Assembly (NCBI GenBank): GCA_046050355.1
Contig: JBJOPW010000015.1
Coordinates: forward strand, 1 to 21,900
DNA: 21,900 bases
Reading direction: 5' to 3'
From: Candidatus Parcubacteria bacterium
GTDB lineage: Bacteria; Patescibacteriota; Minisyncoccia; Phycocordibacterales; UBA918
Part shown: positions 7,295 to 19,434 of the stretch, one piece after another
Numbering within the stretch: position 1 is the stretch's first letter
Layout of the letters: the number at the start of each line of letters is the position of its first letter
Made by a program: the position numbers and the translations under genes
Notes under the pieces: model-generated
What the model was told of the DNA's origin: nothing
Database searches by the model: none
What the model saw: only the letters and a program-made list of their open reading frames with translations

Positions 7295-7362
7295 GCGCGT
7301 AGTATAGCATGTTGGCTTTGGACAATGTTGCATCTCATTTCAAAAATTGCTACCGTACATGC

Positions 7363-7935
7363 ATGCAATACGAGACTAAATATCAGAGCATCGTCTTAAT
7401 GGGTAAAATTTGTTCCGGGAAAGGCACTCAGGCCCACTACATTTTAGAAAACTTTGGTGGCACACTGTACTCAAACGGTAACAAAGTCCGTGAGACAGCA
7501 GCTCAACCAACCGTGTTTGGTCAGAAGATGAAAGAAATGTATGAGAGCGGACGCTTGATTCCCGAGTGGATTGCTTCATACTGGATGACGCACGCTCTAG
7601 TCTCTCAATACGAAAAAGACCGAGTGATATTTGAAGCTGTCGCCAAAAAGCCCGACGAAGCTGAGTTATTTCACGAAATACACGAATGGGTAAATCGTCC
7701 CTACATTGTCTTTAACCTCGACATTAGTGATGAACAGGTACATGAACGAAGTGAAAAGCGGGCTCGCGATATCGTCGACTCACCCAAGTCAGTTGATAAA
7801 CGTCTCGAAGAGTACCGTACTTACACCGCCAAATCGATTGAATTTTTTCGGTCACAAGGTACGCTGATTGATATTGATGGAACACAGGCACCTGAGGTCG
7901 TGCGGGAACACATTTTTAATGTACTCAAGGGGTAG
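7363..7935 (+). CDS. Adenylate kinase-family NMP kinase, divergent paralog
   Basis: Start ATG 7363; GKICSGKGTQA P-loop, GRLIP, KRLEEY, IDGT; DGFPR motif replaced by EAVAK. Confidence 0.85.
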   Translation: MQYETKYQSIVLMGKICSGKGTQAHYILENFGGTLYSNGNKVRETAAQPTVFGQKMKEMYESGRLIPEWIASYWMTHALVSQYEKDRVIFEAVAKKPDEAELFHEIHEWVNRPYIVFNLDISDEQVHERSEKRARDIVDSPKSVDKRLEEYRTYTAKSIEFFRSQGTLIDIDGTQAPEVVREHIFNVLKG

Positions 7936-8058: not shown

Positions 8059-8652
8059 ATGGATATCAAAACAGTCATTTTTATTGGCCCACAGGGAAGT
8101 GGTAAGGGAACCCAGATTGAAAAGCTGAAAGGTGTACTCGAAGCTCGTGATCGTCGGCGGGTAGTAGACATTCAGACCGGTCGTCGCTTCCGTGCTCTCG
8201 CTGCGACCCAAGAAACCTTTGCCGAAGATAAAATCGCTGCGACACTTAATAGTGGCATCTTGCAGCCAGACTTTATTACGACCGTGCTGTGGGGGCGGGC
8301 CATGCTTGATCAGCTTGACGACAAGAGCCATCTCCTTATTGACGGTTTTCCCCGCACTGTGGGACAGATTCCTGACCTTGACGATGCATTTAGATTCTTT
8401 GATCGTACCAGTATCGATGTGGTTAATCTCGCCACTCCAGAGGAAGTAGTCCGCGCGCGCATGGAAAGTCGAGCAAGACAAGATGACACGAGCGATTCTA
8501 TCGAAGAACGACTTCGCTGGTACCGCGAAGAGACACTCCCGGTTATCGAATACTATCGCACTCGTCCTATTGCCCGTGTTCATGATATCGACGGTACGCT
8601 GTCGATTGACGAGGTACATACCGCTATTGTGACGGCTCTCGCCCTCGACTAA
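8059..8652 (+). CDS. adk: Adenylate kinase-family NMP kinase (short LID)
   Basis: GPQGSGKGTQ, LLIDGFPRT, RARQDD, RLRWY; immediately upstream of map. Confidence 0.88.
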   Translation: MDIKTVIFIGPQGSGKGTQIEKLKGVLEARDRRRVVDIQTGRRFRALAATQETFAEDKIAATLNSGILQPDFITTVLWGRAMLDQLDDKSHLLIDGFPRTVGQIPDLDDAFRFFDRTSIDVVNLATPEEVVRARMESRARQDDTSDSIEERLRWYREETLPVIEYYRTRPIARVHDIDGTLSIDEVHTAIVTALALD

Positions 8653-8812: not shown

Positions 8813-9592
8813 ATGTCGGGTATTAAGAAGAAATCATCAGAAGAAATCGACGTGCTTCGTGAAGCGGGGCGGATTTTGGCGACTATCCTGAAGCGCCTCG
8901 GTGAAGCCGCCAAGCCTGGGGTCTCGACCCTTGATCTTGATGATTTGGCTATGGAGATGGTTGAGGAATATGGGGTAGAGCCAGTCCTCCTTGGCTACCA
9001 TCCGACGTTTGCTCCGACACCGTACCCAGCGGCGGTCTGTATTTCAGTCAATGACTGCGTACAGCACGGTATTCCTTCAGCCGATATCGTTCTTAAGGAG
9101 GGTGATGTCGTGAATCTCGATATGTCCATTGGGCTAAAGGGTATGATTGTTGACTCAGGCATTACCGTTGGCGTGGGGGAGATCTCAAAAGAAGCCTCGT
9201 CCTTGATTGCCTGCACCCGTGAGGCTCTCGCTCACGCCATCAAGGAAGCGAAGCCCGGCAATCATATCGGCGACATTAGTCACGCCATTGGAGAATTTGT
9301 AAAAAGTCGGGGCATGAGTCCGGTCGAGGTCCTCTGTGGTCACGGGGTTGGCTACGCCGTGCACGAAGAACCAAATATTCCCAATGTCGGCAAAGCCGGT
9401 CAGGGACCACTGATTGAAGTTGGGCATGTCTACGCCATTGAGCCGATTGTGAACCTGGGTAAAGCCGATGTGTATTTTGATGATGAAGGCGACGGCTACA
9501 GTGTCTACACTACAGATGGCTCAATCTCAGCTCACTTTGAACACACCGTTGCCATTACTGAGCACGGAGCAGAGATATTGACGAGAGCATAG
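8813..9592 (+). CDS. map: Type I methionine aminopeptidase
   Basis: CISVNDCVQHGIP, D...DSG, GHGVGYAVHEEP, AIEP, SAHFEHTV. Confidence 0.98.
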   Translation: MSGIKKKSSEEIDVLREAGRILATILKRLGEAAKPGVSTLDLDDLAMEMVEEYGVEPVLLGYHPTFAPTPYPAAVCISVNDCVQHGIPSADIVLKEGDVVNLDMSIGLKGMIVDSGITVGVGEISKEASSLIACTREALAHAIKEAKPGNHIGDISHAIGEFVKSRGMSPVEVLCGHGVGYAVHEEPNIPNVGKAGQGPLIEVGHVYAIEPIVNLGKADVYFDDEGDGYSVYTTDGSISAHFEHTVAITEHGAEILTRA

Positions 9593-9635: not shown

Positions 9636-9664
9636 TTTACAAATTCATCAAAACGGCCTACACT
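9636..9664 (+). promoter_or_regulatory. Putative promoter of the sRNA candidate
   Basis: TTTACA-17 nt-TACACT. Confidence 0.5.
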
Positions 9665-9670
9665 GAAAGT

Positions 9671-9765
9671 AGGCAGCAGATCCTCCCTCCCTACGATTTG
9701 GTGTCTAACCTCCCTGTTGGACTTGGCCGAGCTCTCACTCCCTGGAGCTCGGCCCTTTTCCTTTT
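9671..9765 (+). ncRNA. Candidate sRNA with three hairpins, each with a C-rich anti-SD loop (cuckoo/RsaE-like architecture)
   Basis: cagatc[ctccctccctac]gatttg; gtctaac[ctccct]gttggac; ggccgagctc[tcactccctg]gagctcggcc followed by a U-rich tail. Confidence 0.65.
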
Positions 9766-9933
9766 CTATAATTTTGTTGTAGTGATCAAACTCCTCAAAG
9801 ACCCTGTCGCAGAGGACCTGCCTGCGGCTTCTGTCGCCACTTCAACCCCCCGTTTTCGCAACCGATGGAGGGTCTTTTCTTTTATAGTGGACAATGGTAT
9901 AGTGCGGGCGTTATTTTGTAACTTATTTTTAGC

Positions 9934-10536
9934 ATGAAGCACCCACACCAAGAACGTACCTTTGTTATCCTGAAGCCTGACACTGTCCAGCGCTCACTGA
10001 TTGGCGAAGTGATCAAGCGCTTTGAACGCACTGGTCTTAAGTGCACCGCCATGAAGATGTTTATGGCTGACGAAGCTCGCCTTCTTGAGCACTACAACAA
10101 GGACGATGCCTGGTTTTTGAAGAAGGGAACACGCATCGTTGAGGACCTCAAGGCTCAAGGCCGTCCTGTTGAGAAGGAAGCTATTGAATACGGTAAGGAT
10201 ATCATTCGGACGATTGTGCACTACATGGAAGCGGCACCAGTAGTAGCCATGGTGTGGGAGGGTAATGCCTCAGTCGCCGTAATTACAAAGCTCGTTGGTA
10301 CCACTGAACCAACCACTTCAGATGTAGGTACTATCCGTGGTGACTACACTGTTGATTCATACAGTCACTCATCATACGAGGATCGAGCCGTGCGAAATCT
10401 CATCCACTGTTCTGAGTCTCCCGAGGAAGCCGAACGTGAAATCGCACTTTGGTTTGCCGAAGACGAAATCATGAAGTATACGACGGCGCAGGAACGGATC
10501 ATGTACGATATCAACCTAGACGGAAAGGGAGAATAG
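9934..10536 (+). CDS. ndk: Nucleoside diphosphate kinase
   Basis: ERTFVILKPD, GTIRGDY, RNLIHCSES (catalytic His). Confidence 0.96.
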   Translation: MKHPHQERTFVILKPDTVQRSLIGEVIKRFERTGLKCTAMKMFMADEARLLEHYNKDDAWFLKKGTRIVEDLKAQGRPVEKEAIEYGKDIIRTIVHYMEAAPVVAMVWEGNASVAVITKLVGTTEPTTSDVGTIRGDYTVDSYSHSSYEDRAVRNLIHCSESPEEAEREIALWFAEDEIMKYTTAQERIMYDINLDGKGE

Positions 10537-10977: not shown

Positions 10978-11376
10978 ATGATCTACGCAGTGACGATTAT
11001 CTTCGGTATCACCTTTGCCGTCTTACACACCTTAGCTGAAGCCCTCTCGCTCTATTGGCAATACGAATGGCTCGATATGCCGATGCATATTCTCGGCGGT
11101 ATTGTACTCATGTTTATGTTTGCGAGTTTGCGTCAAATGTCCCCGATGCTCAAGCGACTCCCTGCGTATCTATCAGTCCTTGGTTTTAGTACTGCCCTTA
11201 TCCTGTGGGAGCTGTTTGGTATTTGGCGGTTTGGCGGGCTTAAACCCGATTATTGGTCTGATACTATTGGTGATCTTATCTGTGGCGTAGTCGGTCTCGT
11301 CACAGGCTACATGCTTGTACGTACGATGACAGAATTTAGCAAACTAACGCAACGACATGATGAGCGTCGCTCATGA
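10978..11376 (+). CDS. Hypothetical 4-TM membrane protein (VanZ/DUF2238-like motifs)
   Basis: WLDMPMHILGG, LWELF, DTIGDL; four hydrophobic segments. Confidence 0.8.
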   Translation: MIYAVTIIFGITFAVLHTLAEALSLYWQYEWLDMPMHILGGIVLMFMFASLRQMSPMLKRLPAYLSVLGFSTALILWELFGIWRFGGLKPDYWSDTIGDLICGVVGLVTGYMLVRTMTEFSKLTQRHDERRS

Positions 11377-11386
11377 ACAAGTTTGT

Positions 11387-12757
11387 ATGAAAAGTACATT
11401 AGGATTTTATGGTGGGGTAGGGAGTGTGACTGGGGCAAACTTTATGCTTGATACCGGTGCGGCGGCGTTTCTTGTCGACTGTGGGCTTGTACAAGGCGAC
11501 CGTTTTGCTGCAGAAGCAAACGCCGTGCCGTTCGTATACAATCCGGCCCAAGTCGATGTGCTCCTCGTAACTCACGCGCATGCTGACCATATCGGTCGGA
11601 TCCCGAAGCTTATCAAAGATGGTTTTCAAGGAGTAATTTATTCCACTCATCCGACGAAAGACTTGGCGAACATCATGCTCCGTGATGCACTCAAGGTGAT
11701 GGAGTACGAGTATGAGCGGTATGGCTACGAGGTCCTCTATGAAGTAGGTGATATCGACCGCGCCCTCTCCCTCTGGAAGACGGTTGGCTATAATGAAGCG
11801 TTCAGTCTCCCTGATGGAGTGACCGCACACTACACTGACGCTGGGCATATTCTTGGTTCGGGAATGATTCATCTTGAACGTGGGGGACAAAAAATTGTTT
11901 TCACCGGTGATATCGGCAATGTGCCGCAACCACTGTTGGCCCCGCCGGTGATACCTACAGACTATGACTACCTCATCATGGAAAGTGTTTATGGCGACCG
12001 CCTCCACGAACAAGTAAAAGAACGCACCGCCCTCCTCCAACACTACATCGAGGAGACGAGACAAAAGGGTGGAACGCTCATCATTCCGGCCTTCTCGCTC
12101 GAACGAACGCAGGGGATGTTGCTTGAAATCAACAATCTTGTCGAAAGTGGGGCAATGCAACCGATTCCGGTTTTTCTTGATTCGCCACTAGCCATCAGTG
12201 TGACTGATATCTACCGTCGCTACCGTGAGTATCTTTCGCCCGAGATTCAAGCCCAGATCAAAGCGGGGGACGACATCTTTGATTTCTCCGGATTGTCGTT
12301 TACGCGGACAGTCAAAGAATCACACGAAATCGATGAAGAAAAAGGGGCCAAGGTCATTATTGCTGGTTCGGGTATGAGTCATGGTGGTCGCATCCAACGT
12401 CACGAACAGAACTACCTCGATGATCCAAAAACCACCGTCCTCCTCGTCGGCTACCAGGCCGCCGGTAGTCTCGGTCGCATTCTCCAAGATGGCGCCAAGA
12501 AGGTCACTATTGATGGTAAGCCAGTGAAGGTGCGTGCGAGTATTGCCCGGATTGCCGGTTTTTCTGGTCATGCCGATCGTGATCAACTACTCAATCTAGT
12601 GGCCCAAGGAGCGGAGAAAGCCGAAGACATCAAAGGTATCTATGTGGTGATGGGTGAGGAGCGGTCATCGCTATTCCTCACGCAGCGCCTAAGGGATTAC
12701 CTCGGTGTAAAGGCGAAGGCACCGAATGCGAACGAAGAAGTCGAAATCGAATTCTAG
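11387..12757 (+). CDS. MBL-fold beta-CASP family ribonuclease
   Basis: Likely start 11387 (MKSTLGFYGGVGSVTGA); VDCG, THAHADHIG, AGHILGS, MESVYG, FSGHAD. Confidence 0.95.
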   Translation: MKSTLGFYGGVGSVTGANFMLDTGAAAFLVDCGLVQGDRFAAEANAVPFVYNPAQVDVLLVTHAHADHIGRIPKLIKDGFQGVIYSTHPTKDLANIMLRDALKVMEYEYERYGYEVLYEVGDIDRALSLWKTVGYNEAFSLPDGVTAHYTDAGHILGSGMIHLERGGQKIVFTGDIGNVPQPLLAPPVIPTDYDYLIMESVYGDRLHEQVKERTALLQHYIEETRQKGGTLIIPAFSLERTQGMLLEINNLVESGAMQPIPVFLDSPLAISVTDIYRRYREYLSPEIQAQIKAGDDIFDFSGLSFTRTVKESHEIDEEKGAKVIIAGSGMSHGGRIQRHEQNYLDDPKTTVLLVGYQAAGSLGRILQDGAKKVTIDGKPVKVRASIARIAGFSGHADRDQLLNLVAQGAEKAEDIKGIYVVMGEERSSLFLTQRLRDYLGVKAKAPNANEEVEIEF

Positions 12758-19118: not shown

Positions 19119-19152
19119 CCGCCGCGACCTAGTGTGGCCGCGGCGGTGGGTG
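19119..19152. repeat. 34-bp palindromic direct repeat, copy 2
   Basis: Identical to 18291-18324; overlaps the stop codon of ORF 19129-19434. Confidence 0.95.
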
Positions 19153-19434
19153 ACGGTTGATGGTGTCGCCTGCTACCGTGATGAGGTCAGCACCAAAGTA
19201 GAATTTGAGATCAAGTTTCAACTTGATCAAGGTTTCTTCTGAACGAAACTCTGGCGGAACGAACGTAGAGTGCCATTCGCCGTTAGGCGAACAGTATCCG
19301 AAGATGGCAACACGTTGACCATCCGCGACTCCGATGAGCAACTCCCTTTCAATGTCATGTTGAGGACATCTTATAGCGACGATTTTTTCTGCCGTCAGAC
19401 AGATGGGTGCGGGTGTCGGCTGTTGGATGTTCAT
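19129..19434 (-). CDS. Hypothetical protein (101 aa)
   Basis: ATG preceded by AGGGAGGGA; TTTACA-16-TACGGT promoter upstream. Confidence 0.7.
   Translation of the reverse strand: MNIQQPTPAPICLTAEKIVAIRCPQHDIERELLIGVADGQRVAIFGYCSPNGEWHSTFVPPEFRSEETLIKLKLDLKFYFGADLITVAGDTINRHPPPRPH

Follow-up and report, generated by a model that had tools for sequence, protein, structure and literature searches.

The map-ndk spacer and its predicted RNA

The window, i.e. the whole 21,900-nt stretch of DNA analyzed here, carries the genes map (8813-9592; Pfam match to Peptidase_M24) and ndk (9934-10536; Pfam match to NDK), both on the + strand and separated by a spacer of 341 nt. In this spacer, at 9671-9765 on the + strand, lies a predicted small RNA (sRNA) of ~85-95 nt, which its match to the Rfam SorX model and its syntenic orthologs mark as a diverged member of the SorX/SorY family of stress RNAs from Rhodobacter-like bacteria. 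It is preceded by a predicted sigma-70-like promoter (9636-9664, +), in which a consensus scan recovers the -35 element TTTACA at 9636-9641, a 17-nt spacer and the -10 element TACACT at 9659-9664, together agreeing with the consensus at nine of 12 positions; the 5' end of the RNA is predicted at ~9671. In two relatives, G007 and G041, TTGACA-17-TACACT is seen at the equivalent position. Thus, an original prediction made from the letters alone, namely that of an unannotated + strand sRNA candidate with exposed C-rich motifs and its own promoter, is borne out. An intrinsic terminator, detected by a terminator scan and in the fold (9725-9765, +), would form the 3' end of the transcript. Its stem (9725-9754) has 11 pairs, eight of them G-C, as against the 10 originally counted; it encloses an 8-nt loop, CACUCCCU, with the third C-rich motif CUCCCUG, and is followed by the predicted U-tail, CTTTTCCTTT.

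The first of the C-rich motifs, CCUCCCUCCCU (9682-9692, +), has two overlapping copies of CUCCC and an unpaired probability of 0.97-1.0, and in the cmscan alignment it falls on the unpaired C-rich stretch with which the SorX model begins. The second is what we term the family seed, CCUCCCUGUUGGAC (9709-9722, +), which is delimited by a four-species alignment and by an identical 18-mer in Rhodobacterales-type loci. In all, CUCCC starts at 9683, 9687, 9710 and 9738, with a mean unpaired probability of 0.93-1.0 for each copy in the partition function of 9671-9765. CTCCC occurs 1250 times on the two strands together (1.88 Mb), which corresponds to an expectation of 0.063 per 95 nt and a Poisson probability of 6e-7 for at least four; nowhere else in the 940-kb genome are four CTCCC found inside 90 nt.

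The region 9655-9775 (+) folds with -42.4 kcal/mol (z -4.78), an energy reached by none of 200 shuffled sequences. The minus strand folds equally well (-43.7 kcal/mol, z -3.62), and the folding energy is consequently no guide to the strand. G-U pairs, originally held to favor the + strand, amount to only three of the 25 pairs in 9671-9765; that argument holds instead for the relatives, in whose hairpin 1 three of seven pairs are U-G and would become C-A mismatches on the minus strand. Together with the promoter, the U-tail and Rfam matches confined to the + strand, these pairs lead us to assign the RNA to the + strand. The choice of hairpins varies with the length of the stretch folded. The first hairpin is weak, with 6 bp and a 12-nt loop, and the middle one, GUCUAAC/GUUGGAC (9703-9722), in which the seed would alternatively supply the 6-nt loop CUCCCU, is present in the minimum free energy structure of 9655-9775 but absent from that of 9671-9765, which leaves the seed mostly unpaired. 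Thus, of the three CUCCC-loop hairpins originally described, the exposure of the motifs stands, whereas the first two hairpins themselves are either weak or dependent on the stretch folded.

The sRNA is followed by a second promoter-to-terminator unit of ~100 structured nt (9767-9884, +), read from the sequence, with TATAAT at 9767-9772 and the U-tail TCTTTTCTTTT at 9874-9884. G007, G041 and G046 share its layout, and in G046 the unit terminates with the seed-like CUGCCUGUUGGGGGU and a terminator. It has no significant match in Rfam and, in view of the seed-like end in G046, may be a decayed tandem paralog of the sRNA. Further downstream, ndk has a promoter of its own, TGGTATAGT (9895-9903), and a 5' UTR devoid of a Shine-Dalgarno (SD) motif, the two spanning 9895-9933 (+); a promoter-like site is also returned by the consensus scan at 9888-9917. 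The ndk promoter and AU-rich 5' UTR (9891-9931) are near-invariant in the four aligned species, whose spacers are otherwise unalignable.

The map-ndk synteny is kept in 25 of 30 loci of the genus, with spacers of 50-1009 nt, a range that makes this spacer look like an insertion hot spot; in some relatives it is as short as 50-66 nt. In three loci (L013 in G018, L015 in G001 and L016 in G076) the spacer holds small accessory ORFs with GGAGG-type leaders instead. The Map and Ndk proteins of G046 are 95% and 81% identical to those of the window, and those of G007 94% and 95%, a pattern suggestive of a recombination breakpoint within the spacer. Elsewhere in the window, two adjacent adenylate-kinase-family genes (7309-7935 and 8059-8652; ADK, 75.7 and 86.2 bits) follow secY, and a gene for a ribonuclease of the beta-CASP/metallo-beta-lactamase RNA-specificity type (11357-12757) is found 1.4 kb downstream.

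Relationship to the SorX and SorY RNAs

At the gathering scores the window has no match in Rfam. In E-value mode the spacer matches the full SorX model (RF02784, positions 1-73) at 9683-9760 (+). With 36.5 bits and an E-value of 9e-8 to 2e-7, this match falls short of the gathering score of 46.6, and the match to SorY (RF02651), of 29.3 bits (E 1.5e-4 to 3.5e-4), does not reach its gathering score of 111. The spacer has no minus-strand match, and the nearest of the other matches, suhB/mmgR (18.2 bits), anti-hemB (17.3) and LhrC (15.8), are faint and far below gathering. The gathering score of SorX is passed by the syntenic orthologs in G007 (61.7 bits), in G041 (61.3) and at the metagenome locus L229 (68.6), whose contig encodes an Ndk 95% identical to that of the window; for reference, the copy of Tabrizicola flagellatus scores 74.8 bits. 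The copies of G007 and G041 are identical to their best Rhodobacterales counterparts at 73 of 78 and 74 of 79 positions (94%), and thus G007 is closer to Rhodobacterales than to the window copy, with which it shares 52 of 72 positions. The Rfam covariance check proposed with the original prediction therefore gave a positive, if sub-gathering, answer in the window, and the RNA, at first treated as one of the lineage's own, is instead a diverged member of a family shared with Rhodobacterales.

According to the published accounts, SorX of Rhodobacter sphaeroides is a 75-nt Hfq-dependent sRNA, which is cut with the aid of RNase E from an ompR-type 3' UTR and represses potA, involved in polyamine uptake (PMC9438474, PMC6238624, PMC8625941). 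SorY is described as being transcribed from its own promoter (PMC6238624), and as an RpoHII-induced, Hfq-dependent sRNA that targets takP (PMC4615379). The SorY-takP pairing predicted by IntaRNA involves SorY nt 39-75 and takP positions -44..-7, and point mutants of SorY at +39, +49 and +52 are reported to show weaker takP repression (PMC4615379).

The window RNA resembles the Rfam consensus of SorX in its architecture: an unpaired C-rich 5' end leads to a hairpin, which is followed by single-stranded ACCUCCCUGUUGGAC and a GGCCG... terminator; the stretch 9708-9729, where ACCUCCCUGUUGGAC lies directly 5' of the GGCCG-based terminator, fits that consensus. The window RNA differs in that the 7-bp stem of SorX hairpin 1 is absent: a CU-rich stretch takes its place, which appears as an 18-nt insert state in the alignment and folds locally into the weak 6-bp hairpin. 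Moreover, it lies after map under a sigma-70-like promoter of its own, rather than deriving from an ompR-type 3' UTR, and its host belongs to another phylum. With SorY it shares an own (predicted) promoter and a 3' module that fits the SorY consensus near letter-for-letter from ACCUCCCUGUUGGACUU through the GGCCGAGCU stem, whereas its 5' half is unrelated. The window sequence ACCUCCCUGUUGGACUUGGCCGAGCU...GCUCGGCC is close to the consensus of both families at almost every letter, and this common block, comprising CCUCCCUGUUGGAC and the terminator base, falls within the predicted seed region of SorY.

The cuckoo/CcsR-type RNAs of Alphaproteobacteria are characterized by loops that expose C-rich motifs and by promoter-terminator units in tandem, while RsaE/RoxS of Firmicutes are C-rich sRNAs that act independently of Hfq. 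The former resemble the window RNA in both respects, with tandem units being seen here (9767-9884) and in G017; no cuckoo or CcsR family matches the spacer in Rfam at E up to 10. A further Hfq-independent C-rich sRNA, sX13, has been reported from Xanthomonas (PMC3771888). RsaE/RoxS and sX13 may serve as a working analogy only, with several unpaired C-rich motifs that could pair with G-rich mRNA sites independently of Hfq, as the window RNA would have to do; they have no sequence or Rfam relationship to the window RNA, and their ribosomes use SD motifs, unlike those of the window genome, whose 16S rRNA tail lacks an anti-SD. Hence, the kinship with known C-rich sRNAs originally suggested was right in pointing to alphaproteobacterial RNAs that pair at ribosome-binding regions, but the relatives are SorX and SorY rather than the cuckoo RNAs or RsaE.

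Distribution and conservation of the copies

A BLAST search of the element against 40 relatives yielded a single 21-nt match, so that synteny and covariance models were needed to trace its copies. In the alignment of the map-ndk spacers of four species (the window genome G000, G007, G041 and G046), conserved islands stand out from otherwise unalignable sequence: the -35 element, the -10 element with the start, the seed with the terminator base (9709-9729; invariant but for one column), and the second U-tail with the ndk promoter and 5' UTR. What is conserved in the relatives is CCUCCCUG(UUGGAC) adjoining the terminator; the placement of CUCCC in loops, whose conservation the original prediction had anticipated, is not kept.

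An 18-mer covering most of the seed, CCCTGTTGGACYTGGCCG, occurs exactly in five of the 128 genomes of the genus and with two mismatches in G096, each time in front of ndk; a reversed-pattern control of this search has matches in six of the 128 genomes. Two-mismatch matches in G120, G127 and G130 are coding-like sequence and were rejected as copies. When one genome per species was searched, at least 102 of the 120 matches listed proved to be sRNA-like, with both seed and U-tail. All sRNA-like matches among L040-L119 come from Rhodobacterales or from unclassified Alpha-/Pseudomonadota, and the matches from other phyla, among those listed, sit inside coding-like sequence. A coding gene as the source of the Rhodobacterales matches was ruled out, as the loci are seed-plus-terminator units.

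The RF02784 model has matches at E <= 0.01 in 20 of the 128 genus genomes, two of them above the gathering score. On inspection, 11 of these 20 loci have the seed, one is doubtful (G044) and eight are plain terminators; the last (G094, G012, G006, G023, G131, G114, G134 and G054) are of the GGCCGG type without a seed and were discarded. Seven of the seed-bearing copies precede ndk (in G000, G007, G041, G046, G047, G096 and, in degenerate form, G076), those of G074 and G022 precede rpsP, and those of G017 and G073 follow glyA. A sample of 150 further genomes from the phylum, representing 130 genera and 0.5-1.2 Mb in size, yielded one weak match of 25 bits. Among 80 metagenome ndk loci, 71 have at least 300 nt of upstream sequence, and six carry seed and U-tail, representing five distinct sequences. 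The map-ndk homologs proposed for examination in the original prediction thus exist as a syntenic series, for which the homology to the SorX/SorY family is established at the level of sequence.

The 5' halves of the copies are of two types, with the SorX hairpin being present in G007, G041, L229 and L233, and the CU-rich stretch in G000, G046 and L257. In the four sequences of the former type, all 28 cells of hairpin 1 are paired and a single compensatory exchange (G-C to A-U) is seen, though this covariation is not significant, being reached by 124 of 500 shuffles. Two further seed-like elements deserve mention. At L175 (G017), a tandem degenerate seed-plus-terminator module (~1700-1760) lies ~150 nt downstream of the SorX-like RNA. 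The window genome has a second UCUCCCUGUUGG just after a stop codon (G000:C8:15092-15105), with a weak hairpin and no U-tail, which the covariance model misses.

Host genome and the partners of the family

The window genome comprises 939,894 bases, is 99.97% complete and has a G+C content of 0.48. In the window, the gene for ribosomal protein S5 is directly followed by that for L15 (3821-4901), with no L30 gene in between. Neither uL30 nor uL1 has a family match genome-wide, the controls being positive in 13 of 14 and 14 of 14 named genomes, respectively. The 16S rRNA, identified by a full-length Rfam match, ends in ...GGAUUAAUUCCAAU; CCUCC occurs neither within the rRNA nor beyond its end (G000:C5, L169:5442-5460, minus strand). 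The anti-SD motif is reported to be missing in about half of the Parcubacteria, overlapping the group that lacks uL1 (PMC9297842), and the 16S tail observed here matches this published loss. We take the host, an ultra-small and uncultured organism, to be a uL1-lacking Parcubacteria-type bacterium of the candidate phyla radiation (CPR).

No family match was found in this 99.97%-complete genome for Hfq, for which the control is positive in five of 14 named genomes. RNase E/G, CsrA and the DctP family of TRAP transporter subunits, to which TakP would belong, likewise have no family match in it. The PotA equivalog was not found, the best protein, with 150.8 bits, falling short of the cut-off of 355.6 and matching in the ABC ATPase core only. 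Thus, compared with SorX, the window RNA resides in a cell without Hfq, RNase E and the PotA equivalog, and compared with SorY, in one without Hfq and a DctP/TakP family protein.

Probable origin and possible mode of action

The explanation that we favor, and regard as probable, is that the window encodes an sRNA of the SorX/SorY family that was transferred from Rhodobacterales, is expressed from its own promoter and acts by Hfq-independent C-rich pairing. The family is broadly distributed in Rhodobacterales and patchy in a single CPR genus, and the SorX matches have a G+C content of 0.59-0.65 in a genome of 0.48; the simplest reading of these observations is a transfer from Rhodobacterales to the CPR genus. 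An ancestor of part of this Parcubacteria-like genus would have acquired the sRNA gene, which would now be fixed between map and ndk. Its exposed C-rich stretches, most prominently the conserved seed adjoining the terminator, would pair in trans with G-rich sites of mRNAs, leading to a block of translation or a change in stability, and would do so without Hfq, in the manner of the C-rich sRNAs of Hfq-less bacteria. In the window copy, the replacement of the SorX 5' hairpin by the CU-rich stretch would have added CUCCC motifs. While the conservation islands at promoter and start, seed and terminator base in the otherwise unalignable spacer are plain in the aligned sequences, we infer the transcription, the trans action and the targets of the RNA. 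Repeated uptake from donors with an invariant seed, rather than selection in the recipient, could account for part of the seed conservation among the CPR copies.

A less likely but serious alternative is that the element is an inert passenger, i.e. Rhodobacterales-derived DNA kept as the terminator of the ribosomal-protein/secY/adk/map operon, which insulates ndk and has no role in trans. The terminator is indeed the best-kept structure, with a hairpin and U-tail directly after the seed in all 11 genus copies even as the inner stems differ. The genome has none of the partner proteins or known targets, its start regions give no target signal (see below), the 5' half is not conserved, with G000 and G007 agreeing at 52 of 72 positions overall, and the copy of G076 looks degenerate. 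However, a terminator needs neither an upstream promoter nor an invariant 14-nt single strand, and both are conserved islands. The copies occupy three different loci and have the seed at each of them, and in G047 map has a separate terminator of its own ahead of the promoter of the sRNA unit. CPR genomes, moreover, are streamlined, and the 50-66 nt spacers of some relatives argue against the retention of inert DNA at this site.

Potential targets and the Shine-Dalgarno question

Potential targets of such an sRNA were sought in the window genome with gene starts derived from crude longest-ORF calling, which provided 902 ORF starts for motif counts and 900 start regions for pairing. SD motifs are not enriched before the 902 starts (GGAG 4.3% against a background of 3.8%; GGAGG 1.3% against 0.9%), as would be expected from a 16S tail without an anti-SD. 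Of 1437 GGAGG sites, 149 (10.4%) are followed by a start and an ORF of 60 aa or more, the figures for 14 control pentamers being 6.8-10.3%. Pairing with the seed at <= -14 kcal/mol is predicted for 29 of the 900 start regions, against 30.9 +/- 10.5 for 100 shuffled seeds. The top match, G000:C4:57178 (-22.1 kcal/mol; z -3.9 of 900), is a hypothetical gene without a Pfam family and is not conserved as a target, with 31% identity in three of five genomes. For a hypothetical 101-aa gene of the window (19129-19434, minus strand), likewise without a Pfam family, ACAGGGAGGG is found five nt ahead of the ATG; nine nt of this site are complementary to the seed, and the start region takes third place among the 900 (-19.4 kcal/mol). 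Thus, the best single candidates in the genome, with AGGGAGG-like sites, are hypothetical genes that are not conserved. A search for 12-mer complements in five genomes gave 21 matches against nine in the control, four of them being the antisense of the sRNA gene itself, and no orthologous target.

These results bear on the function originally proposed for the RNA, that of an anti-SD mimic silencing SD-led genes, or SD-led phage mRNAs, from which SD-less housekeeping genes would escape. The seed does contain CCUCC, ribosome-binding regions are where the family acts in Rhodobacter, a few hypothetical genes, such as the two described above, have AGGGAGG-type sites before the ATG, and the accessory ORFs in the map-ndk spacers of relatives are GGAGG-led. 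Yet with no anti-SD motif in the 16S tail, an SD sequence would have no ribosomal role to be blocked; neither SD motifs nor start regions complementary to the seed exceed expectation, and the five sRNA-bearing genomes have no orthologous target in common. Consequently we consider the silencing of an SD-led gene class a long shot.

Equally little credence, or slightly less, is due to the notion that the CPR bacterium is an epibiont of Rhodobacter-like bacteria and that its sRNA reaches the host, where it would repress SorX/SorY targets in polyamine and C4-acid uptake. The seed is the same as in Rhodobacterales to the letter, the CPR genome contains neither the known targets nor the cofactors and itself gives no own-target signal, and the 94% identity to copies of the freshwater Tabrizicola/Rhodobacter type implies an exchange of DNA. 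In Tabrizicola flagellatus, two of six potA-like loci have CAGGGAGAC, with seven nt complementary to the seed, just before the start. This 7-nt match, however, is an ordinary SD motif of a high-G+C genome; full-length duplexfold comparisons with the Tabrizicola potA-like loci returned only artificial long duplexes, and the uptake of environmental DNA explains the transfer without a symbiosis. We are not aware of any case in which a CPR bacterium passes RNA to its host, and the literature listed for Patescibacteria together with Tabrizicola and hosts consisted only of community surveys. As a speculation with a comparably small chance of being correct, the RNA might be a host-derived stress sRNA turned inter-bacterial effector, its seed being kept, under a promoter of its own, for action in the host, where it would shut down polyamine and C4-acid uptake or switch on a stress state; at the least, it might then be a tag of freshwater Tabrizicola/Rhodobacter-type hosts.

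Finally, a cis-acting leader or attenuator of ndk, for which the position upstream of ndk on the same strand would speak, is hardly credible, since ndk has its own near-invariant promoter, which together with two terminators separates it from the sRNA, and family members lie beside the unrelated rpsP and glyA; the same is true of a minus-strand RNA such as the CsrA sponge originally offered as an alternative, with AGGGAG loops, which could fold about as well, but for which no CsrA was found and against which the + strand location of the promoter, U-tail and all Rfam matches and the C-A mismatches predicted for the relatives stand.

Significance

Base-pairing sRNAs are usually narrow in their range and tied to a chaperone and a set of targets. 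Here, a recognizable representative of an Hfq-dependent sRNA family of Rhodobacterales is seen in another phylum, in a recipient devoid of Hfq, RNase E, both known targets and the anti-SD tail, and its promoter and seed are nonetheless among the conserved parts of the spacer. In the literature listings and abstracts searched, we found no report of sRNAs in CPR bacteria, in agreement with the original prediction, or of SorX outside Alphaproteobacteria. If the proposed origin and action of the RNA are correct, it would represent a rare documented case of a regulatory RNA being transferred across phyla and re-wired, and the first concrete sRNA candidate for CPR bacteria. It would also offer a lead to the hosts or DNA donors of this freshwater Parcubacteria genus, as the apparent gene transfer may hint at the bacteria with which these CPR cells live.
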